Positions 2,703 to 30,983 of a stretch of DNA of 64,000 bases are shown one piece after another (position 1 is the stretch's first letter; each line of letters begins with the position of its first letter). Origin of the DNA: Eledone cirrhosa (lineage: Eukaryota); contig OZ024743.1 of NCBI GenBank assembly GCA_964016885.1, forward strand, positions 234,732,001 through 234,796,000. The letters are read 5' to 3'. A program made the translations under genes and the position numbers. The notes below the pieces were generated by a model. That model was given only the letters and a program-made list of their open reading frames with translations, was not told where the DNA came from and did not search any database.

Positions 2703-2755
2703 GTAAGGGTTACCTTTTGTTCATTTTTATGGATTATTATTAATGTTATATATAA

Positions 2756-3729: not shown

Positions 3730-4372
3730 ATGGGCATCAATACAAGAAGCGATAGTTAAACTTGAGCGAGTGGTTGGTCCACTCCTTCTCGAGCCTTGAC
3801 TTAAAATGTTGACTGGGGGTGCGTCAACTGTTTCTCGTTTGAGGTTGTTCCAATGGTTGATCGCACGTGCAGAAAAGTGGTTCCTCAGGCTTTGTTGGTG
3901 TTGCACCTGGAACTTCCGATTGTGTCCGGGTAGTCCTGTTGAGTGCCTCTCTGAATAGTGCATAGCCGCAGATGGGACACCTTATGTACTGTATTTTATC
4001 GAACTCTTAGTATTTTAAAGGCTTCTATGATGTTTGCTCTCTGCCTCCTATACTCCAGCGTCGGGAGTCATAAAGCCTGAAGACGTTCATTGTAGTGTAG
4101 TGAATAGAGCCTCTAGACAAGGCGTGTTGCTCCTCGCTGCACATTTTCAATAATGCCCTTGTCTGTCTTTAACTTGGGTGCCCATATAACGGAGGCATAC
4201 TCAAGGTGTAAACGTATGCTTTTGTATAGGAGTGTGAAGGACTGTTTGTCCAGTACAAAGGTGTGCTTGAGAGCACCCAAAGTTCTATTTGCCTTGTTGA
4301 CTTGTGCTCGTATATGACTGCTAAATGTTAGGTCATGGTCGATGGTAACTCCCAAGTCTTTTTCTTCTATTC
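3730..4372 (-). mobile_element. CR1-like LINE 3' fragment (pseudogenised)
   Basis: EKDLGVTIDHDLTFSSHI..KANRTLG..LEYASVIWAP..IENVQRGATRLV and FSARAINHWNNL, typical of the CR1 ORF2 C-terminus; frameshifted. Confidence 0.8.
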
Positions 4373-8144: not shown

Positions 8145-9852
8145 GTAGGTGACATTCTGATTGATTTTTATATTGGAAAAGGTTTAATAACTAGTAGGTT
8201 AAGATGTGTCTATATAATTTGTTTGCTTAGACATCCGAGATAAAGGCTGTAATTAAACTTCCACAACATTCACTGGGAAAATTTCATGGACAACCATATG
8301 AATTTGATTTTATGCAACACAGTAGGATATAAAGTTCACTGTGACCCCTCAAAAGTATGGATTTGCTACATTGTGCATCATTGGGTTAAATGGCGCAATA
8401 GCATGAAGCTAAACTTTGTAATAGTGTATTTCATTCTAGGTTTACTTAAATTTTACTGTCCTGTGAATGCATTCGCTGTGGGATATTTGATTTGTAAAGT
8501 AATGTCTGCTTATATCATTTGGTGTATCTTAACTTACCGTTAAAATGTATAAGAAACATGAAAATATTAATTTCTACTCTTATTGATAATCCTGGAAACA
8601 ATATATTATTCACCTTATATATGTAAGGAGTTTTATGTAATTGGTCCCTTAAGTTATTCATACTTTCCCCAAGTGCAGGTATCTGCCAATAAGTCGTATT
8701 GTAGAATAGGGGTCGTCGAAAGGAGCCCGTCTCTCACATCCACAGGAGATATTTTTCACACGGACATCAACGAACGATATGTCGATATAATCATCATATT
8801 GCTATGTTAGACTACCAGAAACAATGGGATCCTCTGCGTAGTCATTCAACCTGTTTGTAATATCAGCTAAATTCCCTTCAAAACAGAAACTAGAATACAT
8901 TGATTTAGTCATGGGATATAGCAAGCCTATTTAAAACGAATCGTCTCATAGTAGATAAAAATGTACTACCGTACGTGAGGGATCAACTGAATCAAACTCT
9001 GATATACTAAACTTTTCTGTGTTCTTTGAAAGCACGCGTTAACCTCGATAGATAATAAAATCCCCGCTCAACTTAGTCGATTATTTTTTTCCTTTGTCAA
9101 TCAAATGTCGAGATTTGTTTCCGATATAATGGTCAGCACGTCATGCTAAGTACTTCAAAATAACAATTATTGTCAAGTGTCAGGGTATTCAGTATGTACC
9201 TATCAAATGTCATTTCTGTACATGTTAACTTAAACTGTGAGCTTTCTTTGAAATAGTGACAGATTGGGGTTTTCTGTCTTTGGCAACACGAGGTAGGGTC
9301 GCTGGTTATATACTGTTACTTGCAACATGAAATAACTTCACTTGGCAAGGCTCATATAATGAATAAGGTACTATCGCCAAGTATTTACTATTCTATGTAG
9401 TTTACTGTGGATGTGTTGTATAACTGATAATTACTTTCTTCATTAGCTTGTCGTTCTTGGTTCATTTTTCGATATACCGGTAGGCATCCATTCCAGTATA
9501 TCACTCTCTTTTGAATCCTGCATGAAAAGGGGTGCAACCAACTAGATGTGTTACGAAGCATTGCATAATATTGAGTTGAGTTGCCAAATTTTGGTGTTTG
9601 AAAAGAAAATGTATTACTAATTATATATTAGTGTATTGTTTTTCAGGCTTTCTATTTGGTCTGCAAGTGTTTAAACAAATGCTAGTTTTTTACCTCAGAC
9701 GTTTGACCTCTCCCAACAATCTATGTCACCCATTTCAACCAATCAATTGCTTCGACTAATCACACCCCTCTTGTTCTGTCATGTCAGCCATTTTAGTTAG
9801 TCAAGCTTTCTCTGTTGCCTAGTCGTCGCCTACTTCGGTTTACTGTGGTGTA

Positions 9853-10059
9853 ATGGTGAAGCGTTGTGCGTGGGGTTTGTGTAATACAGACGATCGTTAT
9901 CCCGAACGTTTGTTGGGTGGTGTTACATTCATACCATTTCCTAAACCGAGGAGACAACGGGAAAAGTGTCTTCGTTGGATTGAACGTTGCGGTCGAATTC
10001 CCGAGCAACTGAACGTTAACATTGTTGACGGAAACAAAAACCTTTACGTCTGTTCAAAG
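9853..10059 (+). CDS. Variable exon V3: N-terminal part of a THAP domain (ends at CSK)
   Basis: MVKRCAWGLC..FIPFPKP..CLRWIERCGR..YVCSK; 69 codons then AAG|gtaaat, phase 0; lacks the Zn-ligand His. Confidence 0.88.
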
Positions 10060-11369
10060 GTAAATAACTCTGTCTTAACTTCAACCAGTCTTTGTAACCG
10101 TTATATGCACTTAAACTTTAGACTTTCTTCACTGCTTCTGCATTGATTTTTATATATTTCTACACATTATTTATTCACTTTTGAATATTCTTTATAGTGG
10201 AAATTAAAATATATTTTATGAAAATGATTTATTAGTTTTCTTAAAGCAATTGTTGCAATTTGTTCAATCGCTTTCTTTAAACTTCACACCATGTTTTGTT
10301 TTGTTTGCGGTAGATGTTTATCTCCTTCAACTAAAGATATATTCATGTTTGTGAGAGATTTTTTTTTATTATCGGTGTTAAGCATTTAAAAAAAATTAAA
10401 TGGGTATATGCGAATATGTTTGATTTCAAATATAAAGAACATACCAACAATCTTTGGAAAACCACATAACTGGAATAAAAAGATTAATTTAATCTGATAG
10501 TCATTGATTGGTTACTAACTGTATAGACGTATTGGGAAAAGATGTGACGAAAACACCTTAAATGAGAGAAGTCAAGAATTGATATGCATGTGCAGTATGT
10601 TTTGAATGGTGCTAGAGTTTCCTTCAACGCTTTCATTATGCAGACGTTATATGAGGGGTGATGGAATAATACTTTGCGATATTTAGTTACGATTTTCTAC
10701 AATCTGAATTCAAATCCCACAGAGGCCAATTTTTCCTTTCATCCTTCCCAGATCTATAAAATAAAGCACCAGTTAAGTACTGGGGAGGATATAATCGATT
10801 TTCCCCTCCCCAAAATGATTGGCCTTGTCTCTAAAATAAAAATTATTATTATAAGACATAAGTTCCTGAAGGTTTATCGGTATTTTGTTGAATCAATATT
10901 AAATTAATTACACAGTAGGTGACGTTGTAATAAAAGTTATCAACGAGCGGTTAATTGAGAATTTGGTAACCATTATATTTATTTAATCAAATCTACTCTG
11001 TAAATATGTAGTCTTGTGCTCGTATTAGAAATCGTTCAGGTTGTTGGTCGAAACTTTGCGGTGTCATGATTTATGTTCAAATTACGTTGGGGTTTATAAA
11101 AAAAAAAATACTAGTGGAGTATTAGTCAATTTGTAATCTATCTTTTAATTATGCTAATGTTCTCGGAATCCAGAAATAAACCATTTGGAACCAAATTCGT
11201 TCCTATTTCCGGTGCTGCCCTGTTTGTACGTCACATGACCGCGGTACAAACAGTATTTCCGTTTTATCCAGTGGCAAAGAATATAAATTTATTATCATTA
11301 TAATTATTCATTCCTCAAGAATTTACGATTTTTTTCTCCTTTTTTGCACACTTCTTTAAACGATCCAAA

Positions 11370-11576
11370 ATGGTAACTAAGCGTTGCGCCTGGGGTACAT
11401 GTCGTAGTGACAGTCGGTACAAGCATAAACCCCATATGCTAAACGTGTTTTTCATATCTTTCCCTAAGCCTAAGAGTTCTTTGGAGCGTTGTATACGTTG
11501 GCTTGCTGCTTGTTGCAGACCTTACTATCAACTGAATATTAATAAAATTAAATCTCACCACTTCGTCTGCTCCAAG
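11370..11576 (+). CDS. Variable exon V4: N-terminal part of a THAP domain (ends at CSK)
   Basis: MVTKRCAWGTC..FISFPKP..CIRWLAACCR..FVCSK; 69 codons then AAG|gtaagc, phase 0. Confidence 0.88.
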
Positions 11577-12137
11577 GTAAGCCTGAATACGAAAGAATTT
11601 TTTTTTTCCTCACTTCGTTTTTTAACGTCTTACTAAAACTATCGTATATGATCTCTACTCATATTCCTGTTTGATATAAAAATATTCTTACACTTATAAA
11701 CATTACTCGGTTTTATAACACTGGCTTTTTTAAATACTTTTAGTAGGGTCCCATCCTATTGCAAGCATTTGGGCCGGGTTTGCTAACGAACATTTGACTA
11801 TTTTACAATCTAAGAGGACATGGTTTTTATATATATATATATATATATATACATACATATATATTCTTTTTTTTTAATATAGAAATTACTTTTACGGGAC
11901 TCGTATACATGTATATGAGAAAAAGAGATGATGTAAAATCCCGACAGCACGGCGCCAAGCGGTTTCGGCTATATATAGCGTTTTGTTTTTTCAAAATTGT
12001 ATTTAAAACATTGAAAGATTGCGGCAATGCCAAACACAAAAAATTTACTTTTGTTTTTCGTAGTGCATTGTGGGTGGAATAATAGCGACTGCAATAGTTG
12101 TTTACGTTCAGTTTTCATACAATTCGTAAGGTCTTAC

Positions 12138-12593
12138 ATGTGTTTGTCAATGTGCTCTAAGAGTAGTGTTGTGACCGTCCCAGGGAGGGCCAAAAAAGAG
12201 CGTAAAACACTAACAATTGAGGACAAAATAGATGTGATTCGTCGCCTAGAATCTGGTGAGCGTCGCTCGAATGTCTGCAGGACGTTGGGCTTAGCACCTT
12301 CTACTGTATCAACGATTATGAACAATGTTGATAAAATAAAGCGTACACACAGAGGAATTGCAAGTGTGTCATCGCCCAACACAACTTATTCACGTAACGA
12401 GACAATGGAGAAGATGGAGAAATTGTTGGTGTCGTGGGTTGATAATATGAACCGAAATAAGGTTCATGTGAAACCGGCTGTAATTATGGACAAGGCGAAA
12501 TTGTTATTTGATGAAATACGTGAGGAATCGGGTAGCACTAAAACATTTAAGGCCAGCAAGGGGTGGTTTCAGCGATTTACAAAAAGGACCAAA
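12138..12593 (+). CDS. Variable exon V5: Tigger/pogo CENP-B-type bipartite HTH domain
   Basis: RKTLTIEDKIDVIRRLESGE..LAPSTVSTI..MEKLLVSWV..FKASKGWFQRF; AAA|gtaagt donor, phase 0; start ATG could be 12138 or 12150. Confidence 0.88.
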
Positions 12594-13271
12594 GTAAGTT
12601 AAAGATGTATCATTGTTTTATAAGTATAAATAAAACGTTTAAAATACCTTTACCTAGCAGCAGTATAAGTTTGTGTTAAATTTTAGTGGTTTCAAAACCT
12701 TAAATTACATAATTTGATGTAAAACGACTCCTATAAATGTAGATTAAATTTAATCTCATACTGACTTAGGTACATTCGTCTATCCAATTTCTTTATTCAT
12801 CTTTTTTCTGATACTTTGTGTAGTCATTAAAGTAAAATTACACGTCTTGAATTACGAGAAATGTTAGACAGGTTGTTTTGATGAATTGATTATAAATGAA
12901 TAAACAGTACGTGACTTAAAACAAACGATGTGAAAAACTACTGATTACTGTGTAAATCATTTTTTTTTTTTTTTCGTCGTTAAAAAATCTTTTTTGTGTT
13001 CTCTTGTTTTTAGACTTAGTTTCCAAAAAATCGCCTTTTTGTGTCGGTCAATTTGACTACTTTCTCGTTCGTAATTTACACCAGCAGCTGTTAAAATTAA
13101 TAAAATACCTCGAAATATTTGCCAGCCTCAGAAACTTTACATTTAAATAATAGCTCGCCATAGTTACGGTATTTAGTAGCATTAGTTAAAGTGTTGTAGT
13201 GTCGGTTGTGCTCTCCCCTTGCCTCTAACTCTTGTTACTGAGCTCTCTCCCCTCCCTGCAGTCAGCTCGCC

Positions 13272-13469
13272 ATGGTGCGCCGATGTGTGTGGGGTTTGTG
13301 TAATGCCGATGAAAGATACCCAGAACGGATAAATGGTGGATTTTTCATTCCTTTTCCTAAACCACGTACAAAACTAGAGAAGTGTTTGCGTTGGATTGAA
13401 GCATGTGGTCGGCCGTACTCTCAGCTAAATGTATTCAAGATTGATCAGAATAAATATGTCTGTTCAAAG
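13272..13469 (+). CDS. Variable exon V6: N-terminal part of a THAP domain (ends at CSK)
   Basis: MVRRCVWGLC..FIPFPKP..CLRWIEACGR..YVCSK; Kozak-like cgccATGG; 66 codons then AAG|gtaagg, phase 0; clear paralogue of V3. Confidence 0.88.
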
Positions 13470-15734
13470 GTAAGGATTGATAAAGCCAACTGACTCCGTT
13501 GTTTTTATTTCATCGTATAACATTTCCTTTTCCCTCGTCTTGCTATTTGTCAATACGCATCCTAGCAAAAGATATCTTTCATTCTTCTTGATATTTTCTC
13601 AATCTAGTCAGTACTATAAAATGAAAAAGACCGAAAGCAATTTCCTAGGAAAACATGCGTTATTAAAACAAATTTGTGTGTGTGACCGAGTCGAAGGCGC
13701 TATGTTTTTTCACTTCTCCTCTTATAATTGGTTATTTACACGCCGAAAACCTTATCACTCAACGTATGTTTGAGATATTCGTACGCAGTGGTCATTGTTC
13801 TGGATTATATATATATATATAAAGGAAAGAGAAAAGAACGGTAGGGATAGAGGAATGGTTTCACATTACACACATTAATGCCAAACACTTTTGGAGTGAT
13901 TTATAACCAGCTTTTTTCCTCTTTTCACACCAAATGCCGTTATATAGAGAGATAGGGACGCACGTACATATATATATTAGTGTTGGCTAAATGAATTATT
14001 ATAATTGTTTCTGTGAAGTCCTTTGCAGCCTAATAGGAAACTTGTAATAGTTAATTGCTATTGTTGGTTGTTCATAAATCTTACAAACAAATAGGGACTA
14101 TTTTCGTCTGAGATGTGGTTTACATGAATATCTTTTTTTTTTCTACTGGTCTCTTCTCTGTGTGTGGGTGTTTTTCATTCAAGTGTTCTACCTATTGATC
14201 CCTTGCAAACAGATGTGTCTGTCATACATATGTGCGTGTGTGTCTGTATATATATATTTTCAAAGCTAACCGACTCTTTCTCAAAATGGCTACTTTGTCT
14301 TAACAGCATCGTGAATAAAGAAAGATATTGACAATTAGCTTGTAGAATGGACCCTTTTATCCATTAAATGTTTGTTTTGGTTTTGCTCCTATATTATAAG
14401 TTTTAATTAAGCATCTGTGTAAGACGTTTCTTTTTGTGTGATTTAGCAGCTTTAAGTGGACTGTAAAAGATGTTACTATTACTACTATATTGTCACATTA
14501 TTGAAGGCCGAATTGAATTTTTCCCTCGAGACTGTTATTTGACCCTCAACCCTAAATTTGAATGTGTTTTTACAGCCTAAGCTTTTTGAGCTGTTAACAT
14601 TATCGAAGTAATATTGTATTTTAGAAACTACGATTCGAGTAGATATTTTCGACGTTTTTTTTTTTTTTAAATTTTATTTTTGAAATTTTGAGGACACGGG
14701 CGGAATTATATCTAGGACCAGGTGGAGGGGTTACTTACCGTTGTGTCGTGCATCTCTTTCCCATGAGTTTTAGGCAATTACAAGTGGAAATCAAAACTTA
14801 TTCGAAAATATTTTCTCACATGAGCACCTGTATCTGACTTTATTTTCCGAAAAGAGTTATGAAAAATTTGACATTCGTGTCATATTTTCAAGGGCATTGG
14901 CAATGCGAATGAAATTCTTTATTGCAACATTGGTTCACCTTAAAGTCTGCATTAAACCTTCTCGTTTGTCTTACCCCCCTCTCTCTCCACCTCCATAATA
15001 ATAACGCTGTAACTCCATTCTTGCTCACTTTTTTCTTCTTTTTCATATTGACCTGACCGAGTTTTTGTTAGCTTAAGCATCTCAAGTGATTTTGGGCACT
15101 TGGCAGCATCCTGCTAAAAAGTGGATTACATATATGATATGGACGGTACAGTCTCCTTCATGGCACTTCCAAGGGAAGCAAACGGTTTACATATCAAATT
15201 GACTGATAAATTTACGGTCCAACAAGGGGGTTTTCAATATGGTCGCTCTATCTACAAGATATCTCTCACAAATAACACCGCACGGTCTTGATATTGAAGG
15301 ACATGTTAATGTAAACTTAAATTGTTTTTCATAAACCTAAACGACTACTGATATATTTATTTAGTAAAATGTTGAAGATGTTTAGCCCCAGGCCAGCCAT
15401 GATTGAGCAGATCCGTGACCAAATGCTTTTTTATATAACTTTTCTGTTACTTTATGATCGATCAACTGCTAGCCACATTGTTTATATTTACATAATTAGC
15501 CAGAAATTCCTTAATGTGCAGAAGAATAGTAAGGGATTATAGACAGTTTAATAGTGACGGGAGACTTTGTATGCAGCAGATGCATGATAGATAGATTTTC
15601 TTCATTACTCGAGTGGCTTCATTACTTTGTTACTTGTGCGACCTAATTTTCAGTGAAGGATGGTGCCATGTAGTGTGCGAGAAAAATGACTGTTGTTGCA
15701 GATGTGTTTTGGGTATCAAAGTTGAGTTCTATAT

Positions 15735-17000
15735 AAAGCGATGCAGAGCAATCTCAATTGATATGACCCAGAATTATGGGATGCTGTAGTAGAGACTGAC
15801 TGAGGATATAACAATGGGCTGTGATACCTAGCGACATGCAGGACTGGAAGTGATCCCCCACCCCTATTGCTATAGAAGCAAGATGCCCAGTATCCACCAC
15901 ACTCTTTACCCCGTAACTTGTGACGACCAGTCCGTCCTTCATTACAGCTACCTCACTTACTCCTTTATATCTTTCTGCTAAATCCTACTGCACATGCCTT
16001 AACACCTGTGGCATCGTACTTGTCATCCATATTAACCTACTCATCTTAGCCATCAACATAGCTGCCTTGCGACAGTGCTGGTATCACTATGAAATGCAAA
16101 TGATAAAGTGATTGGAAGAAGAAAGGGCTTCCAACATTAGAAACTATGCAAAAAAAAAAACAGAGAATTCTTTGTTCGTGTCAGATGCATGATAAGCACT
16201 CCAGTGCTGTTGCCACGATAAAATTTACCCCATACACTCTCTAAAGTGGTTGATAAGATGGGCATCTAACTGTGGAAACTCTACCTGAACCAGAATGTAT
16301 GTAAGCAATATGTGCCTGGAACGTCTGGGAGGGCAATGGCACTAAGTACTTATTTGGTGTGACAAACAATACCAGCATGGAAGACTTGATGTTAACATAT
16401 TTGGATGTGTGTGTGTGTATGTATGTATGTCAGCAAAGCTGAAATGAATTGAGAGAGAAATTGAGCATAAGAGGGACCAACTGCAATATGCAGAAGAGGT
16501 GATTGCGATGGTATGGACATGTGATGCATATGAAGGGCAACAGCTGTATAAAAAGGTGTAGGATGGTCAAAGTTGATGGAAGCTATGGAATAGGAAAGCT
16601 TGGGATGAGGTGATAAAAGCTTAACTTGCACAATTGCACTTCTCAAAGGCAATGATACAAAATCGAGATCTCTGGTAAGCAGTAATGCAGAAGACCCAGC
16701 CTCCCTTGTGCATGAGTAGAAGCATACATTTAGAATGCACCACTTTCATATGCCTCCCACATCCTAACACTCCATCCTTCAGCTAAGTACCCTACCTCTC
16801 TAATCCCCACTCTACATACATGCACCTCCCCCAGTCCACACTGTAAATGTGGTTGGCATTAGGAAGGACACCCAGCCATAGAAACCAAGCCAGAAACGGT
16901 TATTTATGAACAAGGCACAGTCACCTGATCTGCCTTGTCTTGCCATGGGACAACTTGTCTAACCCAAGCTAGTGTGGAAAATAGATGTTAAATTATGATG
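15735..17000. mobile_element. Decayed RTE-like LINE fragments in both orientations
   Basis: 16430-17000 resembles the 3' part of the RTE copy at 61.5-63 kb (WYGHVM motif, shared 3' UTR text); 15735-16075 looks like a minus-strand fragment. Confidence 0.55.
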
Positions 17001-18278
17001 ATATATAATTAAAATAGAGATACAAAAACAATTTAATGTTATCAGGTTCACACTTAGAATAAAGAGAGAAATTGTTCAGCATATCAGATTTTAACCCTTT
17101 GTCAGGAGAGTACAAGTAGAAAGATAGTTTTAAAAATTTTTTTTAGAATATTGGATGGTTAGAGACGATGTATATAGTGTTCAGAAATGGAATGTTTCAG
17201 TTAGGTTTTCTTATCAATTTGATCATTGTCATCATTTAGTGTCAGTTTTTTCATGCTGGCATTGAAGAATTATTATTACGTTGTTAGTGTGTTTGTGCTC
17301 ATTCATGATAAAACTAGTAAATTAAAAGAAATTCTTCACTGCACACCTATGCAAATTTAGCTGGCCTTCTAGAGAAAGTTGTAACTTATTGGTTTCTAGA
17401 TTGTTTTAATAATCGGCTCCCCAGTTCTATTATGAAAAGCAATGTGAAATGAAGTGTCTTGCTGAAGAACATAACATGCTATCTGTTCCAGGCAATCACT
17501 AAGCCACACACCTTCAGTTAAAAGCATTTCCTTATAAATGTGTTACTAAGTTTATTGTAGTAAAACCCCATGTTTGTCGAGAGGGCTGAAGTCAAGGTAA
17601 ATGGGTTTTGGATGTTTATCTGTTTTTCTGTGTGATTTGAGAATAAAAATTAGGGAACCTAAGTATATATTATAGTGAGGTCAATGTAGCTATGGAATAT
17701 AAGATTTCAAATGAATCAAGCAAAAGGTAAAGGGTTATGGCTGTGTATGTATATGCACATGTGATTGGCAGTGTCTGCTTAAGTTTGGTATTTGTGGCTA
17801 GTAAAACACGGTTTCATATATACTATTTTTCAGAGAAGTTCTCCAATTGAGGGGATGGGTAATCTCGGGTCGTTTTGGAGGTTTGAATGTGTGATAAATG
17901 GTTAGCTTCTTTTTTTATGTTGGTTTGTGCATATGAAAGTGTAATCTTGTATATGTAGGTTGAAGCCTTTCAAAGAAAAAACATGCAAATTTATAATGAC
18001 CAAATATGTACATGCACACACTTATATACCTGATTGCACTTATGGGTGTAAATATAGATGATCAAGAAGGTCAACTGTGTGGAAACTCCACCTAATTACA
18101 TATATATCATTATTACTGTAGGATGAAGCAAATTTTTTTATCACGAAGAGTGAGGGATTGACACAGATGATTACTTGTCGCAGAATTGTAAAAGGATGTA
18201 AACATTTTAAAGTTTTGCAAAGAATTACATGTTTTGTATGTAAAAATTATCGCACCCTACATTAGTGTAACTATATTA

Positions 18279-19032
18279 CATGGTGTGTCAGAAAAGTAAC
18301 AGGGCTTTGTGTGCTGTGTGATCGATGAGTGAGGTAGGGACTAGCAGGTTGCGTCAACATGTGACATAATATCCAGGAAGTTTACAATTGTGATCTCAGC
18401 TCTCTGCAGCCATTGTATGTTTTTTTTTACATGCTTTTCTTAACAGTTCTTCAATTTTAGGTCGTTGAGCGATGGGCACTGATCAACAAACCATCCTGAA
18501 GTTTTGGGTCCGACTGAGGAAAACTCTGTTGGAAGCACTCGGAATACAGCAGCAAGTGTTTGGAGATAAGACAATGTTGCGCTCATGGGTTTTCAGGTGG
18601 CACAAAAGGTTCAAAGACAGGCGCAAGGATGTGGAAGGCTTGAGTGTGTTTGTCATGAGCTGCATGGTGATCATTGGCTGACTGTTTGACTGATCACAAG
18701 TGAGCTGGGCATGAACGACAACCAGGAGGAGTGCCACATGCAGGTGTGTCAGGACATCTTTGAGCATCTTGAAACTGAACCAAACTTGCTGGGGAGAGTC
18801 AGCACCAGAGATAAGTCATGAATTTTCGAGTACCACTCGTTTTCTAGGTGTGGAAGCCATCAAGCAGGCTGTGGTGAGTCCTTCCAGGAGTGCATGGAGG
18901 CAAGGCAGAGAAGGATGGGAAAGTGTGTTAGACATAAGGGGGGGGGGGTTATTTTGAAAGGGAAAACTTGTAGTTTGAATTTGACGTAATTTTTTTGAGG
19001 CCCCGATCCTGTTGCTTTTGACACACTCCATA
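18279..19032 (+). mobile_element. Internally deleted mariner-family DNA transposon relic
   Basis: ORF 18472 (QQTILKFWVRLRKT..VFGDKTMLRSWVFRWHKRFKD) resembles the mariner N-terminal HTH; imperfect TIRs CATGGTGTGTCAGAAAAGTAACAGG and CCTGTTGCTTTTGACACACTCCATA, flanked by TA. Confidence 0.75.
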
Positions 19033-19604
19033 TAATGCACCCCAACAAAAACAAATCAGTTAACCTTTTATTCGTTGTTCTAATGGGGGGGGGGGGTATA
19101 ATTGTCTGGTGTTTCGGTATTGTATATTCTGTAATTTGAAGTTGACAAACATACATGAAGTTGATGGAAAAAAAGACTGAAGGAGAAAGAAATAACACAA
19201 ATTAGCAATGTTCTATTGTAGAACACTCCTCAACTGATAGTATGTTGTTTTATTTCTTCTCTCACTATATTAAAACTCTGTTCACACCATTTCCAATATT
19301 CATCTCAACATCCTCTTTTAAACCACAACCAATTTCTACTAGTGTGACAAAGAAAATCAACTCCAGTACTGTACTTAATCTACACTTGAAAAAATAAGTG
19401 GGAGAAATTGTTGTAGGCTCGGAGGAAATCAGGCAAAGGTAGACATATGAAGAGGTTATTGAATGTGCAGAATGAGTGGGATGACAACAATGAGAGCAAT
19501 CTAGTTCTTGGACCGGCAAAGATTACTGATGAAGATGAAGCGTAAAAAGGCAGGAATTTTGGGAGGTGTTAAAGGAAGTGGATGACGGATCTAAAGGTTG
19601 GCAG

Positions 19605-20200
19605 TGAATGCAATCTCCTCTCTTGCACACTGCATCTGATCTCTTTTATGCCCATTTTCTCTCTGGGTTCATTTATGCTTTGCCATTCATGTATTACATA
19701 TCCATTGGAACGTGCAAATTTCATTTCTTTCCAATCTTCGTAGGTCCTCTGCACATAGCGACCAGATCTCACTATCGTGCAACATTTATGTTCGAATACA
19801 TGCATCATGTAATCTGCGCTTCATTTTGAGGAAAATATCTTTTGAAGCTAGCAGTGGTAGTAACTCCGTTTTTTTCCATTCCATTCTCACTGTCTACAAT
19901 GCTTTTGGAACACGCACCTCCACTGCTAATTTGATCATCAATCTAACTGAAGCCGTCAACTGCTTTTACAGAATCTTCTAAGAATTTCATAGCTTTTGTC
20001 TCCTGTGAGTGTTTGCTGCTTACTGCTCTTATACAACGGCCACATGTAAAACCTACATTCTCTGCTAGCCTACCCAAGATCCCACTACATTTCTTGTGTA
20101 CCCATTGTTTGCATTTGGGAGAGAGAATGGAATTTCTACCCACTCCTTTCCTATACACTGAGCAGGGCCATTTCCCTGAGGATATCTGTCTGGTTTTCCT
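19605..20200 (-). mobile_element. Degenerate RTE-type LINE fragment
   Basis: SGKWPCSVYRKGVGRNSI..WVHKKCSGI homologous to ORF 54340. Confidence 0.8.
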
Positions 20201-21270
20201 TATATATATATATATATACACATACGTGTGTGTGTGTGTATGTACACACACACACTAGCTCATCAATGTTCTTTGGGATTTGCAGTGACAGATCTAAGAT
20301 ATATATACCAGTTAGAAACTTTAAACCTGGGCTTTTCAAACTTCCTCAATTGTGGCCACTTTTAATCATAGGGTCTGTTTGTTTCCCTGGGCTTGGTATA
20401 GGCTCATTAAATATGCCTTTGTACAACATTATACAGTTAAAACAAAGCTATTGTATCTATTTCAAGGGGGCCAACCTTGACACATAGTGACAATCAGTCT
20501 TCCTGAAAACTACATTAAGGTACATGTCTGTGGAATACCAGCTACTTACATGTTAGCTATGCCAGCTACTACATTCCAGGATTAGGTTGTTCCATTATTC
20601 AATTAACTGGAACACTTGTCAGGGCCGACTTTCTTTTCCTGGTTTTAGTCATTGGGCTGCAGCCATGGTAGGATACCACCTTGATTTAGTCAATCATATC
20701 AACCCCCAGTAGTTGTTTTTTTTTTTTTCTTCCAATTTTGGTATTCATTTTATCAAACTCCTTCAGCACTTTCCATCAATCTAATTCTACTCCTGTCAAT
20801 GCTCACCATGATGCTACAGTAGAAGTTACTTGCTCAGGTTCCACACAGATTGAACCCAGCACAATATGATTGTGAAGCGAACTCGTTAACCACACAGCCA
20901 TGTCTATCTAATCATTTCATTAGTGAATTATAAAGTTTGATGTGCTCATCAAACTTAAACAGGGGGGCGGGAAGACTGCAGATTATGAGTCATGAGGTGA
21001 CTCAATATTGATTGATTAGCAAGAAATAATTGTACTCAACAATAAAATATTTGCATGTTTAACAAATATATAGGTGTGTCTTGTAATATTGAAGTTCAAT
21101 TCATTTGCCTACTCTAAAAGCGGCAGTTCCAGAAGCCATCATTTCACACCTTGGAGGTGACACTAAATAATCTATAAACGTTGATGTTTTAGACGAACTG
21201 CAAAGGACCCGTACGAAAATATGAATTTAAAAAAAATTAAAATTAAACTGACGAAGTTGTGTTTTTAATG

Positions 21271-21271
<1 letters not shown>

Positions 21272-21342
<71 letters not shown>
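21272..21342. repeat. (TA)n microsatellite
   Basis: About 70 bp of TA repeat abutting the left end of the Tigger-like relic. Confidence 0.95.
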
Positions 21343-21344
<2 letters not shown>

Positions 21345-22470
21345 CAGTCCCCGTGTTACGAACGTCCATATTTGCGTACCGACTTCCGTAATCCTGTTTT
21401 CTTTTATTACAGCGGACTACTTTGCCAATTACATCAAAACATTGCGCGTTTTTAGCAGTTCATCGGTTGTAAGAGTGACAACGCTACGCCGTCGCCATTT
21501 TAAGCTATTTCACGTTAACTGTGTGTATTATTTGTGTCATTTGACGTTAATTTTGTTTGTTCCCATAACCATGCATCCAAAGCGCAAATGCGATGGAAGT
21601 GGTGGTGATAAATTTAAAAAAAGAAAAACTATCACAATTGAAATTAAAGTGGAAATAATAAAGCGGTCGGAAAGAGGTGAAAGGCCTTCGAGCATTGGAA
21701 AAGCATTAGGCTACAGTCCGTCAACTATCGCGACGATTTTAAAGAACAAAGTGAGGATAATGGACCATGTAAAAGGCTCTGTCCCAATGAAAGCTACAAT
21801 TATCACTAAACAACGCAGTGGTTTAATTAATGAAATGGAAAAGCTGTTGGTAATTTGGTTAGATGATCGAAATCAACGTAATATGCCCATTAGCCTTGCT
21901 ATTATACAAGAAAAGGCCAGAAGCCTTTTCAATATTTTAAAAGCTGTGCGTGCAACAAGTGAAGGTGATTGTGAAGAAAAATTCGTTGCGAGTAGGGGTT
22001 GGTTTAATCGTTTTAAAGGGAGGGTAGATTTACACAAATTTAAAGGAATGAGAGTAAGTGTTAACCTTTATCTTTTTCTGTCTCAACTGTTTAAGAAGTG
22101 TTTTTAAAGCTAAACACATTTGTTCTAACTCTTTGCGTTTTGAGTTCGAATCCTACTAGAGTCAACTTTGCTTGTCATCCTTATGTCGATAAAATAAAGT
22201 ACCAGTCAAATACTATGGTCAATTTAATCGACTGACTCTTTCCCTAAAATTCCGGATATTGTGCCTACATTAGAAACATCATTACGACTAATTTTGCCTT
22301 TCATCCTTACGGGGTCGATAAAATAAAGTACCAGTAATGCACTGGGTAATTGCTGGCCTTGTGCCTCAAGTAGAAACGATTATTACGACTAATTGACGCG
22401 AAATACGTAACTGTTCCGACTTAAAGGCAATCGTATGAACGGAACGATTACGTAGCCCGGGGATTGTATG
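21341..22470 (+). mobile_element. Tigger-like transposon relic with degenerate TIRs enclosing V7
   Basis: Left TAGGCAGTCCCCGTGTTACG versus reverse complement of 22451-22470 CATACAATCCCCGGGCTACG (14/20 identical); encloses a Tigger HTH exon; SINE pieces inserted at about 22130-22385. Confidence 0.6.
21571..22053 (+). CDS. Variable exon V7: Tigger/CENP-B-type bipartite HTH domain
   Basis: MHPKRK..KKRKTITIEIKVEIIKRSERGE..STIATILKNK..EMEKLLVIWL..FVASRGWFNRF; 161 codons then AGA|gtaagt, phase 0. Confidence 0.9.
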
Positions 22471-22641
22471 TGTAGCTGTGAATACATTAGCTTATACAAT
22501 TGATAAAGCTGACTCGATAGATGTGGGCCGAGCTAGTGAGAAGGCTCTTGCAGCCATTCAACCAGCTAGCAATGGTAACCTAAGTTTCCGTAGAAAAATA
22601 AATTGAATACAGAGGACGATGTAGTCACTTCTTAAAACCTC

Positions 22642-22828
22642 AATAACTATTTCTATTTTAGGCACAAGGCCAGAAAATACTCAGTACATTGCTGGTACTT
22701 TATTTTATCGACTCCGTAAGGATGAAAGGCAAAGTTAACCTCGGCGGGATTTGAACTCAGATCATAAAGGGACGTAACTCTATGCTTCAAAGCATGGTGT
22801 CCGACTCTACCGATACTGCCAATCCACC
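22642..22828 (-). mobile_element. tRNA-derived SINE
   Basis: Reverse complement of the SINE at 2756. Confidence 0.85.
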
Positions 22829-24337
22829 ATAACCTGTTTCTAACAGCTCACTTAAATCTTATTTCCCATTGCTTAGTATTTAATTCTTTCCTCAATATTC
22901 ATTAAATGTAATTCTCGTAATTTTTACTAATAATTAAAAACAAAACGAAAACTGTTTTCTGAAGAAACGGAACACCTCGATGATGATGATAATAACAAAT
23001 CAGTGGAATATGTTTACTGTGTAAGTGGTTGAGTATGTGTGCCGTTCGAACGTGTATCCTCCACTTTCAACTTATCTTATCCCCGCCTCTTGGTCCCGGA
23101 GTCCAAACATCATAATTCACGAACCCCACCACCCCCCACCCACCCACCCCAAAAAACACGTTCGTGTTGAAAGTGCTTGACTTGTGCAATATAACGGTCA
23201 AACTTAGAGTAAACTACTGACAGATTAAATCCTCATGTTTCGGACAGTGTGTTTCCCTTTCTCCGTCTCCTCTCCACACACGCGCGTGAGTGCGTATGTA
23301 GCCCTTTTAACCGCAACAGACATTCCATACAATCATTCGTCGTCGCTTGAAAACAAATCGAAAGTTTGAACTTTCATCTTTAGTTTAAATAGTTATTCGT
23401 CTCTGGGTGTGTCAAATTATTTTGACTACAACATATGATGGAATATCATATATGTGCGAGTCATTCGGTGCTAAATCATTTACGAAACATAGAGAGAACA
23501 ATGTCAATGAGATTTTTTTTTAATGACGTAGATAAGTGAAATAGTTTCAATGAAGAAACGAGACTGGGTCAGCAACCTCCTGGGAATAGGAATGTTTTTA
23601 CTAGTAGTAGTTTGTTGCTTCATTACATCTCGGCAGATTCTCGCGAGAATCCATAACGTTATGGAAGTCTTCTCTGCGGATGACACGGTGGCGGTTGTTT
23701 ATATTTCATAGTTTTTTTTTATATTTCACTTAGTATATATATATATATATATTACATATTTAGAACTTCTATGCTTTAATGAATATTATTTCAATTTGTC
23801 GATTAAGTCGGAAAGTATTCCCGTTAAATGCTTAAAAGAAACGTTACGTATGATTTTGTATTCGAAATATTGATTTCGAAAATGGCCGGCTTTCTATTTC
23901 ATAGAGATATTCTGAAAATTGACGGCTTCACTTAATATTGTATTTTTTTTCTTGTTATATGATCAACACATGTATACTATATACTATACTAGTACAACTA
24001 CAAATTGACATTCTTTTGTTTTTAGTAATTATTGACGATATGGTACTCTTAAAAATATTAATGTACAGAAGCAATTTAAGATATTGGACTTTTTTCGATC
24101 AGGCCTAAAGTAGGAAATAAACAACACAAGCAGCAAAAGGGAATAAATAGTTGAAATTGCTTTCGTTTTCTTTTCCTTTTTTATTATTATTATTGCAAGA
24201 GAAAGCTTGGTGTAAATGGTTTTACCGTGTATTTTCGGGAAAGAACTTGATCGTTTTAGTAATAAAATTTAATTTTGTTAGATGTAAGTGGGTTACTGAA
24301 AGAAATTGTTAGTTTGGCAAATTTTGAAAGGTCAATT

Positions 24338-24514
24338 ATGGTTCAGTCGTATGTCCGGAAAACCGACAACGGAAAGTGGTCATCTAGCCAGATGGTTTCT
24401 GCTGTCTCAGCAGTACTGTCTGGAAGTCTCAGTATTAGGAAAGCTGCTGAGAAGTTCGCAATTCCTAAAGCTACACTTGCTCGACATTATAAAAAACCAT
24501 GCTATTCTTTCTTA
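24338..24514 (+). CDS. Variable exon V8: pipsqueak-type HTH
   Basis: MVQSYVRKT..WSSSQMVSAVSAVLSGSLSIRKAAEKFAIPKATLARH; 59 codons then TTA|gtaagt, phase 0. Confidence 0.85.
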
Positions 24515-26189
24515 GTAAGTAGTTGTGCGTGTCTGTATGTATGTATATTTATGTATATATATATATATATACATATGTGTATATATATATATACACACAT
24601 TTGTTTTTATTCTTTTATGAAACTTGTTTATTTACTTTCATTACAACTTTAAAAGGACACTTCTATTTTAATTTATAAACGTCCCTTTTTTTTATAAGAA
24701 TATTTCTTTATACAATTCTTCAAAATGACAATTGCATATTTTGCGTGCGTGTACGAAAATTTTGTGATTCTTAATTTGTCAAAAGAAAATTACGAGCAGT
24801 TGTGTTATCCATATTTTAAAGTTTTATTTGCATTTCTATTTTTTTTTTTAAATCTTTAAAAACATTGATATATTCCTATTTTACTTCGTAAAATACTAAT
24901 TTATTTTCTACTTACTATTTTGGCAGTAGTACCGGTATTTGTTCATAAGTGAATTAACGTTCTGTTTTGATTGATTTATTTAATTTTTAAACTAAATAAT
25001 TGTGATGGTGCTTAGAGCAATTTTACAATATTGTTTTTAAGTACACTAGTAGAAGAACCGCCTAATGGGCGGTTTTCTGCTAGCATATGTAGTATGCGTA
25101 TCGGTATTATACGCAAATATATATACATATAGATATGGTACGTAAATTGACAATATCGTCTTCTCCCACTTATTTCTGGGAGGGTAGTGGGGGCAGTCCT
25201 CATCAAACACTCCTTCCAGCGAGTCTGTCAGAAGCACCGATCATTGTCAACTACTTTCCATTTATATCTTGCATGACACTAACCCAAGAAGGTCTTAGAT
25301 GTAGACGCTTGCACTGCTAGAAGTAATCTATAAATATCCCTTAAATTACATCCCAGAAAAAAGGATGGATACATTGGAAAAATTAATTCTTCGACACACT
25401 GCCTGAAAATAAGATGAGATGGTTGTTGGTCAGTTAAACGAGAGCTTTTATATGGTCGCTTGACCTATTAGAAATAGTAGCCAGGTTTCCTCAAATCACA
25501 TCCGATCATCTTACACAAACATACATATTTACCTAGTCCTGCCAGGTTATGCTCACCTTTTCTCTTTATGAAGATAGTCTACATGAAACGTGTACCATTA
25601 GTGGAGTAATTAATGTGAAAGCACTTGATGGGACAGAGAAATGAAACAAGTGCTATATCTTAGTCTTTTTCTTGTGAGATATTAACCTCCATGAAAGACA
25701 AATGTAAATGGTGGTGTTGGATATTAAAGAGCAGATGTGTGCATAAGAATGGAACATAAATGCAGGATAAAAAAATGTGCTTTCGGTTGATACCCTCTGC
25801 CAAAGTGGTGAGGCCAAGTAAGCCATGCTAACATGATCCCGATATAATTTTTTTGTCACTATTTGTTTAAGAAATAATTAATTACCAATGATCTTGGTAT
25901 TATTTAGGTATCCTGTGCACCATGCATTGCTTGTGGCACCTATTCAGCTAGGAAGCAACACTCCATTACTGATGCATATTTCAAAAAAACCTTGATTTTA
26001 TTCAATTGGTTATTGCTGACCTTCTGGTGAAAAAAATCGAGTATTTCTACAAGAGTCCTGTGTGCTGATCATTTCATATGATGAAAGAATACATTGGATG
26101 TTGATGTTCATAAAAATTATATCCTAGAAATTTTTGTTGGCAAAATTTATTGTATTTTTATATTCTAATCAATGTTTTGTTTTCTTCAG

Positions 26190-26285
26190 CATTTTGTTGG
26201 TGGCAATGGACCTACACGAGACCACCCTGATCCTCTACCTGTTAGACCAATGAATGTTCTCCATTCCACAGCTGGCTACATAGAT
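26190..26285 (+). CDS. Shared internal exon S: C-terminal part of a THAP domain
   Basis: ttttgttttcttcag|CAT TTT gives HFVGGNGPTRDHPDPLP..YID|gtaagc; 96 bp, phase 0-0; matches HFIGQNGPTPEHPDPIP in the unsplit THAP exon V16. Confidence 0.88.
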
Positions 26286-27559
26286 GTAAGCATAATTTAT
26301 TTTAATTGTAGTCATATAGTATCAAACATTTATTTTTCAGATCAAGTTGGAATAATAATTGCCTTTTAAAACAAACATATACCATTTATACTCGTGTACT
26401 ATTTTCTGCCAAAATATTTGGATTTTTTTATGGATATCTTGTAAAAACAAATTCTAGTTTTTCACAGACAAGAAATCAAGGTATTATCTTGAACATAAAT
26501 GTTACTATTATGAAATCTGTTTACACTATCATGCTCTGGTGCACATATCTTCCTGAATATTTCACTGAGAAATCATAAATTAGGTTACATCACTATTATA
26601 AATTTTGGTAGTTTTTAATATTGACCTGCATTAGCAAGGTAAACCATTGCTCATAGCTCCAGTGATGATGTGTATTTCTTAAGAAATATTTCATATCTGC
26701 TTGCTGGCAGTCATGTGTTGCAACTCAATGAGGCTGAAGTTTACACCATCATTTCTTATATAACCTTGGCTGTGTATTTATCAGTTGTACACCATAAATA
26801 CCCTATCTTTGAATGGCTACTAAAGGTAATTATGCTATATTTTGTAACTTAAAATCAAGATAACTTAAGCCTGCCTGCCATTTGCAGATGTAAATACATT
26901 AACAATGTTATTACTATCGGTCATGTTGTCAAAATTATTAAGTTTAATGCTTTCTCATGTCAACAAACTTTGGTTCCCTCCTATCTTCATGCAAAATTTG
27001 ATGTGGCATGCAGCTGTTGATTATTTTCTCAGCTACAGTGGGCACTCAGATTGTCAAATATCTAATAATTATGAATCAGAAAAAATACCAGTATCTTATT
27101 CATTACCATATTTCTAATGAAAGGTGTCACCCTTATTTTTCAAATGATCCAGAATCTGGAGGGATTTAGTAATATAACCAACTTTCTCGGTATTAAAATG
27201 ATGTTTGGAATATAACAAAGTTTCTTAGATACATATAAAGACATAAAAACTTTGTTTTTATGATTTTATATTCATCTAAAATATCATAGAATGAAGAGGG
27301 CATTTAGTATCAAATGGGTTAAGAATTAAAAGGATGGGGGGGAAAGAGAAGTGCATTCTAGTGACACCAAAACTAGTGTTGTCTCACCCATTGCAGTCTA
27401 AAAGAGATCTCGCCATTAATCTTCAATCTCACCGCACATGTTGATGGGTGGATCTCACTAGTCTACTCAAATCTTGTGTCATATCCTATTGTGAGGTTGT
27501 TTCTTAAAATGATTATTTATAACTGTCCCTTGTCTCCCTCTTATACACAGGTTTTCTTT

Positions 27560-28330
27560 CAGTTCATTTGTGCTCCTACATTTACTAACACATCTAGCAG
27601 AGAATGCAGACTTCATTTCTTTCCAACCATCACAAATATTCTACACTCATGATCCACACCTCACTGCCATGTTAGCATAGCAGTTTAAACACACTCATAT
27701 AATCTGCCCTTCATTTGAGAGAGAAGTCCATTGTTAGCAGTAGGCATAACCCCTGATCCTCTTCCACCCTTTTCTCATTGTCTATCACACTTTCAGTGCC
27801 TTCACCTCCCACTTCTAATTAATGTGCTTACTTAGATAGATAGTAAAAACTATTTGCTACTTCTAATTAGTCTTCTTAGCATTTAAGAGAGTTTATTTCT
27901 CTTGTCTGCTCTAGTGCACCTGCCATATATGCAGCCTACCTCTGATCCTACTGGTTGCGCTGTGTAGTTCCTACCTTTTAAAACTTTCTAAATCTAAAAT
28001 AGTCTTTGCTAGGTTTACTTTAAGGTCTTTTGATTCCAGATTTTGTTTCTATGTCTGCAACTTCGTTGCAAATTCTTCCAAGAGGAATCCTAAGTGGTGT
28101 ACATGAGAGAAGACTGTAGGTACAGATGTGTGATGTGCATGAATGATGATCAATGGGTGAAGAGGTGCCAGGAAATGCCGCAGTTGAGGTAGACCAAGAA
28201 AGACCTGGGCTGCGTTGGTGAGAGCTGATCGCAAATCACAGACTCTCGGAGGAGATAACAAAATGTGGAGAGATATTCTGCTGAAAAAAACCCTACCAAC
28301 CCATGCGAATGTGGAAAAACAGACATAAAA
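27560..28330. mobile_element. Decayed RTE-type LINE fragments in both orientations
   Basis: Similar to parts of 54326-55365 (GGTAGACCAAGAAAGACCTGGG; CTTTGCTAGGTTTACTTT on the minus strand). Confidence 0.65.
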
Positions 28331-30805: not shown

Positions 30806-30983
30806 TGCAGTATCGGTAGAGGGTCGGACGCCATGCTTTGACGCATAGTTACGGCCCTTGTCATTCTGAGTTCAAATCCCGCCGAGATTAACTTTGCCTT
30901 TCATCCTTACGGGGTCGATAAAATAAAGTACTAGTAATGCACTTGGTAATTGCTGGCCTTGTGCCAAAAGTAGAAACAATTAT
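30806..30983 (+). mobile_element. tRNA-derived SINE
   Basis: Near-identical to 2756-2946; followed by an older minus-strand SINE piece. Confidence 0.85.

Follow-up and report, generated by a model that had tools for sequence, protein, structure and literature searches.

The Eledone cirrhosa locus described here is very probably one multi-promoter cephalopod gene in which each promoter drives a transposon-derived DNA-binding first exon, and in which a single shared exon, S, completes the zinc finger begun by four of these first exons, V0, V3, V4 and V6. The DNA analysed, referred to as the window, is a stretch of 64,000 nt, and the features listed within it are all on the + strand. Judged from its sequence, the locus is one gene, the octopod ortholog of Octopus bimaculoides LOC106877732, for which RefSeq lists at least 36 isoforms that differ at the N-terminus and share the C-terminus, and whose exons were mapped in order. 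In the annotation models, a transposon-derived DNA-binding first exon is spliced onto a constant BTB tail.

Organization of the locus and the split THAP exons

Upstream of S, first exon V1 (2343..2702) encodes a complete THAP domain (Pfam E 2e-13) and V2 (7002..8144) a Pfam DUF3504 domain, which we take to be of Crypton-type tyrosine-recombinase origin. V5 (12138..12593, start codon uncertain) and V7 (21571..22053) each carry CENP-B_N and HTH_Tnp_Tc5, and V8 (24338..24514) carries HTH_psq; V1, V2, V5, V7 and V8 all have phase-0 donors. The half-THAP first exons in the window are V3 (9853..10059), V4 (11370..11576) and V6 (13272..13469). S itself (26190..26285) is an internal exon of 96 bp, phase 0-0, common to the upstream starts. 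Past S, about 10 more candidate first exons (THAP, CENP-B HTH, DUF3504 and zinc fingers) make up the last tier, 32481..48495; last-tier first exons splice straight to C1, and isoforms X14, X28, X3 and X15, which lack S, map there. A psq ORF near 42340 in this tier is CpG-poor (0.27) and may not be used as a first exon. The first constant exon, C1 (49861..50096, phase 0 to 2), lacks both His and Cys. The BTB domain, residues 261-364 of X29 according to Pfam, begins in constant exon C2 (50488..50794), and the last coding exon, C3 (51738..52811), holds the remaining BTB segment (Pfam) and a Ser/Thr-rich tail, with 93-94% identity to the Octopus orthologs.

The initial annotation described V3, V4 and V6 as stopping at VCSK before a GT donor and sharing one distant exon, and this split-THAP observation is confirmed. 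Each of the three reads from an ATG through the first three Cys ligands of a THAP domain to V-C-S-K and a phase-0 GT (GTAAAT in V3, GTAAGC in V4, GTAAGG in V6). Coded VCSK/GT, where the slash marks the splice site, occurs three times in the window, exactly at the ends of V3, V4 and V6; in 200 block shuffles it came up 0.035 times on average and never more than once. The single 96-bp phase 0-0 exon is also as described, with the boundaries ttcttcag/CATTTT...GAT/gtaagc and the translation HFVGGNGPTRDHPDPLPVRPMNVLHSTAGYID. The paralogue V16 (44557..44829) is indeed unsplit and reads LCSLHFIGQNGPTPEHPDP; it is a THAP of the same broad family (Pfam 29.6 bits), on a tree branch apart from the four half exons. 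The set of three half exons was real but incomplete: a fourth, V0, ending in ICTK/GTATAA, lies 2.3 kb before the window (window -2281..-2081; G000:C4:234729719-234729919), and with two further shared exons upstream, J3 (phase 0-1) and J2 (phase 1-0), the locus has four tiers. Splicing to S spans introns of 16,130 nt from V3, 14,613 nt from V4 and 12,720 nt from V6; the intron from S to C1 is 23,575 nt, and the four half-THAP exons lie 13 to 28 kb from S.

Four AG/His-Phe sites occur in -2300..49861 and only the one at 26190 gives a THAP reading, in keeping with the earlier by-eye impression that no other exon supplies an HF-starting second half. An HMM of the second half, made with the octopus row left out, was run over 264 kb and a further 88-kb contig and matched S (E 4e-9) and V16 (E 4e-8) alone, which rules out a private second exon near each half-THAP. 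The DNA of S has one match in the whole genome. Three runs of one sample covered 9700-26400 in every one of its 30 bins, and none of the long contig pieces listed over the exons had more than one differing letter; this contig cover, together with cross-species conservation, rules out an assembly artefact. The runs covering the exons are contigs with DNA-like continuous cover, with none of the 15 joints listed (of 264) at exon ends, and are uninformative on expression.

Exon S in the THAP fold and in the isoform models

From S come the His ligand, the Phe and the loop that closes the THAP fold, and after them a disordered linker. With S included, X29, X30 and X32 scored 27.6, 27.1 and 25.8 bits against Pfam THAP (PF05485), above the gathering score of 23.9, whereas the halves alone all fell under it (V3 22.6 bits, V6 19.5 bits, V4 no match); V0 alone had no Pfam match. 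The predicted C2CH ligands of V6+S are C5, C10, C64 and H67, of which C64 is invariant in a 66-row alignment and the others are at least 90% conserved, and CSxHF aligns with 2JM3. THAP domains carry a C-terminal AVPTIF box. The literal box is absent here, the whole subfamily having PDP-x-P at that place (P79, P81), aligned to the matching stretch of 2JM3. An AlphaFold model of X32 residues 1-98 had a mean pLDDT of 87, with values of 91-95 through residue 80. With VIA-align, the top four of five structural matches were THAP domains, the alignment spanning the S part, at middling Z scores of 5.4, 5.2, 5.2 and 3.1; the best, 2L1G, had Z 5.4 and an rmsd of 3.4 over 78 residues. Foldseek gave no match at E<=0.001 (best E 0.09), and its top three rows were THAP domains. 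The modelled V+S domain is consistent with a THAP fold, at modest scores. V6 folded alone gave a pLDDT of 54; because it was folded without an alignment, the comparison with the V6+S model would be unfair, and no weight is placed on it.

The proposed variable-S-constant assembly agrees with the annotated isoforms: in O. bimaculoides RefSeq, X29 is V3+S+C, X30 is V4+S+C and X32 is V6+S+C, and a Sepia pharaonis model reads V6-S-C1. These joins are those of annotation models; RefSeq alternative isoforms require RNA-seq-supported introns. The isoforms were retrieved by a C3 search for longer proteins, and a protein search with the V/S alignment returned transposases, with no named Octopus isoform in the best 120 of 382. 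S is present in 27 of 34 annotated full-length isoform proteins, a set that includes cross-species repeats; of the 32 members of the main isoform cluster, 15 were listed. Six of the seven proteins without S begin downstream of it, and the seventh has a first exon outside the locus in the E. cirrhosa genome. The initial annotation had also supposed that V1, V2, V5, V7 and V8 could include or skip S. V1, V2 and V8 are all annotated with S, i.e., V1 in P0175 and O. bimaculoides X16, V2 in P0192/P0154 and X1 of O. bimaculoides and O. sinensis, and V8 in O. bimaculoides XP_014782223 and O. vulgaris P0191. The same holds for the other upstream first exons among the isoforms listed, where no skip form is found. 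A V0+S isoform is likewise absent from the isoforms listed; V0 has the weaker donor, GTATAA. From these models, use of S looks constitutive rather than optional. As S is frame-neutral (96 bp, 0-0), rare skipping may occur.

V3 is identical to X29 at 66/69 residues and V4 to X30 at 67/69, and V6 is identical at 66/66 to both X32 and the Sepia model P0301. That V6 is unchanged in 66/66 residues argues for strong selection on the arrangement. V3 also matches 64/69 residues of a protein that matches the cuttlefish model. Residues 1-15 of S are conserved at 15/15 in four named octopod species and at 14/15 in Sepia; over longer stretches the Sepia comparison gives 27/32 for S and 139/269 for the C3 tail, with V6 identical. 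The S. pharaonis gene model is imperfect, with part of V3 fused ahead of V6. Apparently, the V-to-S arrangement has been kept since before the octopus-cuttlefish split. The median CpG o/e was 1.02 at 23 first-exon candidates vs 0.37 at 6 internal exons (p=4e-4), and S, at 0.15, is gene-body-like. Distinct cDNA 5' ends in supplement rows and the CpG retained around first exons would fit a separate promoter for each.

We propose that each promoter would drive its own transposon-derived DNA-binding first exon and that the same BTB exons would end all transcripts. The four tiers of first exons would be separated by the small shared exons J3, J2 and S, and then C1, and a transcript would take one first exon, skip the others, and include all the shared exons that lie 3' of where it begins. 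In origin, S would be what remains of the second exon of an ISL2EU-type (THAP-HTH-DDE) transposase gene that was captured and whose ancestral intron lay between the third Cys and the His; V0, V3, V4 and V6 would have retained only transposase exon 1, so that S finishes their C2CH zinc finger, and for the other upstream first exons S would be a 32-residue linker. In solved THAP-DNA complexes the N-terminal tail, beta-sheet and loop L3 read the major groove. The variable halves would contribute these three elements and S the common His and minor-groove loop, and promoter choice rather than S skipping would decide which of four related DNA-binding specificities is mounted on the common BTB scaffold.

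The initial annotation favoured S as a regulated cassette, the skipping of which would give three-ligand, zinc-deficient BTB proteins acting as dominant negatives. We consider this improbable. The frame would survive skipping of 96 bp in phase 0-0, nothing in C1 could substitute for the missing ligand, and BTB proteins dimerise (10.1101/132027), but among the annotated upstream isoforms listed, which do not include V5 and V7 isoforms, none lacks S. Skip forms would measure 600-603 aa, a range between X35 (612 aa) and X36 (598 aa), which appear to be consecutive; of the 24 numbered isoforms listed for O. bimaculoides, 23 keep to a descending order of length. Neither J3 (0-1) nor J2 (1-0) is singly skippable, which suggests constitutive use, and the phase-0 ancestral intron discussed below accounts for the phase of S. 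Harder still to credit is the view that the half exons are transposon remnants without function or artefacts of annotation. The joins are those of annotation models, but this reading is largely refuted by the conservation, since octopods and cuttlefish have an identical V6 and V3 keeps its 64/69 match; in addition, the frames are intact, the donors strong and the CpG retained. Constitutive joining of the half exons to S remains our preferred interpretation of the models.

Transposon source of the split and origin of the half exons

Among their relatives, the half exons come closest to THAP-HTH-DDE_Tnp_4 transposases, e.g., P0070 (THAP, HTH_Tnp_4 and DDE_Tnp_4). A metagenome scan with V6 alone gave no match; an alignment of close relatives did, yielding 22 related loci. 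Ten of these have CSx/GT and, further downstream, a second exon; 3 have just the donor, 4 show no split and 5 are uninformative. The 13 donor-bearing loci are not independent, because 10 of them come from two assemblies. At one split locus the downstream transposase region is also present, and 17 of 168 parsed relatives show CSx-Val reading into the intron. Related animal loci have the donor after CSx and the acceptor before HF at this codon too, a match in position with relatives rather than with a direct parent element. On this evidence the split is inherited from an ancestral intron of an ISL2EU-type THAP transposase and was not designed at the locus; S would be in phase 0 because the ancestral intron was a phase-0 one. 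In the isoform models the transposase-derived domain is joined in frame to the host BTB domain. DDE_Tnp_4 had no match in the 24 window ORFs scanned, and the isoforms carry THAP and BTB only; an active transposon is ruled out, there being no DDE domain. No free genomic copy of the half-THAP family was found, all 5 genome matches being inside the locus.

How four half exons came to share S may be read in two ways. Our slight preference is for separate captures of different ISL2EU-type elements, in which an insertion upstream of S could use S through the shared intron position and at least some V+S domains would be chimeric. Every half is at least as close to non-cephalopod relatives as to the other halves: V4 has 65% identity to an Amphiura protein vs 46-52% to the other halves, V3 reaches 75% with a Tegillarca transposase and 68% with another half, and for V6 and V0 the values for a non-cephalopod relative vs other halves are 70% vs 68% and 67% vs 64%. 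A tree of 48 of 188 rows puts the halves in four places, and none of 200 bootstrap trees unites them; however, the tree rests on 69 columns, with rows chosen partly by similarity to each V, and an AU test leaves a single clade unrejected (p=0.123). The flanks of the half exons share no similarity, but such likeness would vanish over this time span anyway, and the lack of a free family copy in the genome also counts against repeated capture. The other reading, that one two-exon THAP was captured and its first exon and promoter were tandemly duplicated and diverged with a single second exon kept, is a serious possibility that we rate somewhat below even. The coding parts of V0, V3 and V6 can be aligned at 70-73% DNA identity, local duplication does occur (the V0 start is partly repeated 292 bp upstream, and tier 2 has two near-identical THAP first exons), and the AU test allows one clade. 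Against duplication, V4 especially groups with outside sequences, and the unrelated first exons V1, V2 and V5 interleave with the halves.

A more speculative extension of separate capture, as a whole rather unlikely, is that S might be a reusable landing exon: related transposons would have been independently domesticated by their first exon only, borrowing S to make two-element chimeric zinc fingers. The four-tier locus would then be a cephalopod transcription factor repertoire, with at least 35 transposon-derived heads on one BTB body and cell-by-cell promoter choice (protocadherin-like, and a mirror image of lola), still gaining heads.

Comparison with known systems and significance

Clustered protocadherins and UGT1A are described as tandem first exons with their own promoters, spliced to common constant exons, the intervening ones being skipped (PMC3338513). 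The Eledone locus likewise has tandem alternative first exons and common constant exons, but its variable exons are unrelated transposon-derived DNA-binding domains rather than paralogs of one domain, the tiers are nested, four in all, and one domain is cut at the variable/shared boundary. In immunoglobulin and TCR V-J-C assembly, the joining segment completes a domain begun by the variable segment. S similarly completes a domain started by a variable exon, but here by RNA splicing to a single fixed joining exon; DNA is not rearranged, and neither combinatorial nor junctional diversity arises. The BTB genes mod(mdg4), broad and fruitless, like lola, have many isoforms with different zinc fingers. 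Drosophila lola is one BTB gene with 20 protein isoforms, 17 of them with a zinc finger (10.1101/132027). Both lola and the Eledone locus produce many isoforms with different DNA-binding domains from one BTB gene; in lola a constant N-terminal BTB precedes variable 3' exons, whereas here variable first exons are N-terminal and the BTB is C-terminal. The lola/Ttk-group plan of constant N-terminal BTB and variable C-terminal zinc-finger exons is not found at the locus.

Host-transposase fusion genes are reported to splice transposase DNA-binding domains to a host regulatory domain, mostly KRAB, at transposon-supplied splice sites, 8 of 9 traced sites being acceptors upstream of the transposase ORF (10.1101/2020.05.07.082677); that paper's main text mentions neither THAP nor BTB. 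The present locus resembles these fusions of Cosby et al. in placing a transposase-derived DNA-binding domain on a host domain at a transposon-supplied splice site position, but differs in reusing an intron from inside the transposase gene, whose donor and acceptor now sit on separate modules, and in that dozens of captures feed one gene. The ISL2EU group of PHIS transposons is described as having a transposase with THAP, HTH and DDE domains (PMC4482050). The closest relatives of the half exons (e.g., P0070) share this architecture and the CSx/HF intron, whereas the locus keeps THAP exons only, without HTH or DDE.

We found no description of the locus: main-text searches for the locus and accession were empty, most subscription papers and all bioRxiv supplements being outside their scope. 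A published survey lists isoforms of this single locus as 11 separately named rows of Octopus THAP, CENP-B and Psq factors, so that gene counts are affected where isoforms of one locus are treated separately. The four V+S domains would offer a natural test set for the share of the major-groove half in THAP specificity, with the minor-groove loop held constant. For domain shuffling, the locus points to a route in which half a domain is the unit of capture: an intron position conserved in a transposon family would make 5' and 3' halves interchangeable, and one shared exon can thus serve several first exons. In sum, the locus is a candidate for a counterpart, in cephalopods, both of lola and of protocadherin-style promoter choice for transcription factors.

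Half exons and the shared exon S

About 19 candidate first exons lie in the window, most with a good phase-0 donor and, in most cases, a THAP, CENP-B/Tc5 HTH, Psq HTH, DUF3504 or zinc-finger domain. The constant exons C1-C3 are at 49861-50096, 50488-50794 and 51738-52811, with a BTB domain spanning the last two. The last constant exon shares 93-94% identity with Octopus bimaculoides LOC106877732, whose RefSeq isoform numbering reaches at least X36, and with O. sinensis LOC115209932, and 81% with an Argonauta hians protein; the host is therefore an octopod. At its 3' end (50010-50096) C1 carries a short repeat of charged residues, RRFDEQRFQEQRFQERRFENRRFDDRR; Octopus, Argonauta and Sepia all retain it and differ slightly in its length. 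A partial second copy of C2 (92% identity) is found just past the window end, at G000:C4:234796662-234796856; in Octopus, paralogous BTB genes that bear other N-terminal domains form a tandem cluster (LOC1068777xx). Introns and downstream sequence contain very high-copy repeats and decayed reverse-transcriptase fragments, LINE-like by their motifs (about 21950-23070, 16400-16900, 54322-55350 and 61750-62520); read depth is over a million near 22 kb.

Three half-THAP first exons, V3 (9853-10059), V4 (11370-11576) and V6 (13272-13469), each start with ATG and end in VCSK followed by a phase-0 GT. Exon S (26190-26285), which gives the His ligand of the C2CH motif, opens with His-Phe, preceded by a pyrimidine tract and CAG, and runs up to a phase-0 GTAAGC. 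The initial annotation had proposed that the three halves share S, and sequence inspection bore out all four positions. The window has three instances of the coded VCSK/GT pattern, compared with an average of 0.035 over 200 shuffles. Between -2300 (negative positions being upstream of the window) and C1 there are four AG/His-Phe sites, with a THAP-like reading at S alone. A search for other second-half exons, also proposed at that stage, was made with a THAP second-half profile from which the octopus row had been left out. Over 264 kb and an additional 88-kb contig, its only matches are S and the unsplit first exon V16. As DNA, S has a single match across the 3.0-Gb genome. The shared exon is a real and conserved feature, and was correctly spotted.

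Annotated splicing of half exons to S

V-S-C assembly is well supported on the basis of annotation models from relatives. The RefSeq models X29, X30 and X32 of O. bimaculoides carry each join, being V3+S+C, V4+S+C and V6+S+C, with first exons identical to those of the window at 66/69, 67/69 and 66/66. Introns of RefSeq isoforms generally rest on RNA-seq. With S, the Pfam THAP scores are 27.6, 27.1 and 25.8 bits for X29, X30 and X32, all above the cut-off of 23.9 bits; without S, V3 scores 22.6 bits, V4 gives no match and V6 scores 19.5 bits, all below it. Structure prediction for a V+S fusion, as the initial annotation had suggested, gave, for residues 1-98 of X32, an alignment-based model that is confident to residue 80 (14 residues inside S) and disordered at 88-96. 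In structural comparison the model comes closest to THAP domains: 2L1G (Z 5.4, with an rmsd of 3.4 across 78 residues), then 2JM3 and 3KDE (Z 5.2 each); these scores are modest, and no unrelated row is better.

The further proposal, that S is an include-or-skip cassette whose skipping yields zinc-deficient and possibly dominant-negative isoforms, is not supported. S is present in 27 of 34 annotated full-length isoform proteins, a set that spans several species and includes orthologous repeats. Among the seven without S, the first exon is downstream of S in six and outside the locus in this genome in one. Annotated forms of V1, V2 and V8 include S; the isoforms covered take in 15 of the 32 members of the main cluster, none of them from V5 or V7. 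Skip products of V3, V4 and V6 would be 600-603 aa. Since 23/24 of the numbered isoforms seen follow descending length order, and X35 and X36 are 612 and 598 aa, there would be no slot for such forms. C1 contains no His or Cys, so that a skip product, of which the annotated proteins seen give no example, would be left without the zinc ligand. The first exon of O. bimaculoides X18 has its best match here on another large contig (G000:C1:342788672-342789064, 77% identical), with the same phase-0 donor position, no BTB exon within the surrounding 80 kb (one gap), and many decayed relatives elsewhere in the genome; translocation, misassembly, separate recruitment or trans-splicing may account for this.

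The split between octopods and cuttlefish dates back more than 250 million years. The Sepia pharaonis gene model P0301 reads most of V3, then V6 (66/66 identical), S (27/32 overall, 14/15 over the residues that complete the THAP) and finally the constant exons, whose tail is at only 139/269. P0301 fuses V3 to V6, so the cuttlefish join is a predicted one; the exons themselves are present in a cuttlefish. The V3 stretch of Sepia is matched without differences by a Logan protein that ends VCSK-Val, indicating that V3 is split there too, and an ENA protein matching V4 at 59/69 ends likewise.

Origin of the split

Among the matches listed, those nearest to the half exons are transposases with THAP, HTH_Tnp_4 and DDE_Tnp_4 domains from molluscs, echinoderms, cnidarians and fish; ISL2EU elements are described with a THAP, HTH and DDE domain set (PMC4482050). 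Of 224 protein matches, 168 were parsable: 140 go on with the His, 17 run as CSx-Val into an apparent intron (two being cephalopod V orthologs) and 11 read otherwise. Among 22 metagenome loci, ten have CSx/GT plus a downstream second exon, three the donor only, four are unsplit and five uninformative, with 10/13 donor-bearing loci coming from two assemblies and three from three others. Seven introns at CSx could be sized cleanly, at 240-446 nt, and one split locus also has the downstream transposase region. This genome has five matches to the ISL2EU-type THAP family, all inside the locus. Because transposase relatives share the CSx intron, the best reading of S is the second exon of a transposase gene that was captured. 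The split is inherited, since relatives carry a donor at the same codon. In the fish models P0046, P0048 and P0122, the same half-THAP is joined at the CSx boundary to unrelated host genes (OTUB2-like, TNFRSF5 and a PDZ protein), which suggests that its donor is often captured with no second half at all.

Each half exon is as close to outside proteins as to neighbouring halves, or closer. In a tree of 48/188 rows (top matches plus random others, 69 columns) the halves fall in four places, and 0/200 bootstrap trees unite them. An AU test does not reject a single clade of half exons (p=0.123); we lean slightly towards at least some halves being separate captures, V4 the likeliest.

Upstream tiers and the probable working of the locus

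The initial parts list was right for V3, V4, V6 and S, but missed a fourth half-THAP first exon, V0, and two further shared internal exons, J3 and J2, all upstream. V0 (G000:C4:234729719-234729919, window -2281 to -2081) ends ICTK/GTATAA; alone it has no Pfam match, and a V0 isoform is absent from those examined. About 292 bp upstream, the 5' region of V0 recurs as a partial tandem duplicate, which breaks off after about 30 codons. J3 (G000:C581:41789, phase 0 to 1) and J2 (about -56258 to -56209, phase 1 to 0) are used by upstream isoforms, and four first exons joining J2 have a phase-1 donor, fitting the J2 phase. The upstream tiers (G000:C581:27423-77761 and -62566 to -9802) contain FLYWCH, THAP and HTH first exons; contig C581, placed by isoform order, is likely to sit in the assembly gap at -71288. 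The exon order is tier 1, J3, tier 2, J2, tier 3 (11 first exons, including V0-V8), S, tier 4 and C1-C3. In tier 2, one THAP is likewise divided, between two exons of its own that lie about 5.5 kb from each other (G000:C581:59894-59965 and 65475-65753); the break falls at a different position (after ...SFHR), and this THAP matches O. bimaculoides X11 and Argonauta X6.

With exon coordinates picked by the analyst, median CpG o/e is 1.02 around first-exon candidates (n=23) versus 0.37 around internal exons (n=6; p=4e-4), with S at 0.15 and one candidate near 42340 at 0.27. Such a pattern would fit V exons with unmethylated promoters and an S that lies in a methylated gene body, a reading that leans on general knowledge of invertebrate methylation. 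The candidate near 42340, an HTH_psq ORF at 41998-42597, is unlike the other first exons in its low CpG o/e, has no clear donor at its end, and is possibly unused as a first exon.

The transposon intron explains the split. The locus works like variable-first-exon clusters (PMC3338513) and like lola in reverse (10.1101/132027), lola-type architecture itself not being that of this locus, and it qualifies as a host-transposase fusion sensu Cosby et al. (bioRxiv). It was judged not to be an active transposon. Octopus THAP and CENP-B proteins with BTB are noted by Mukherjee and Moroz 2023 (PMC10027918), where "isoform" and "alternative splicing" are absent from the main text. Its supplementary Table 1 has 11 LOC106877732 rows under separate gene names, one isoform twice, and split-THAP isoforms are absent from those rows. 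A prior description of the locus or shared exon was not found in the literature searched, outside which lay subscription papers and bioRxiv supplements.

The THAP subfamily of the half exons is also fused to BTB in abalone (P0235 and P0246, Haliotis), and other cephalopod BTB loci have THAP, DUF3504 or whole transposase-like N-termini (P0200/P0309, P0245, P0162, P0164 (Octopus), and P0197, from a cluster including a Sepia member); by these fusions, molluscs have captured transposon domains onto BTB repeatedly. Structures of THAP1 and of the P-element THAP on DNA have the beta-sheet, N-terminal tail and loop L3 reading the major groove and the C-terminal loop L4 touching the minor groove (PMC2879526). 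The intron places the beta-sheet, tail and L3 in the V exons, and the His and next loop in S. The locus may thereby offer four related DNA specificities on one BTB body, selected by promoter, with S always included.
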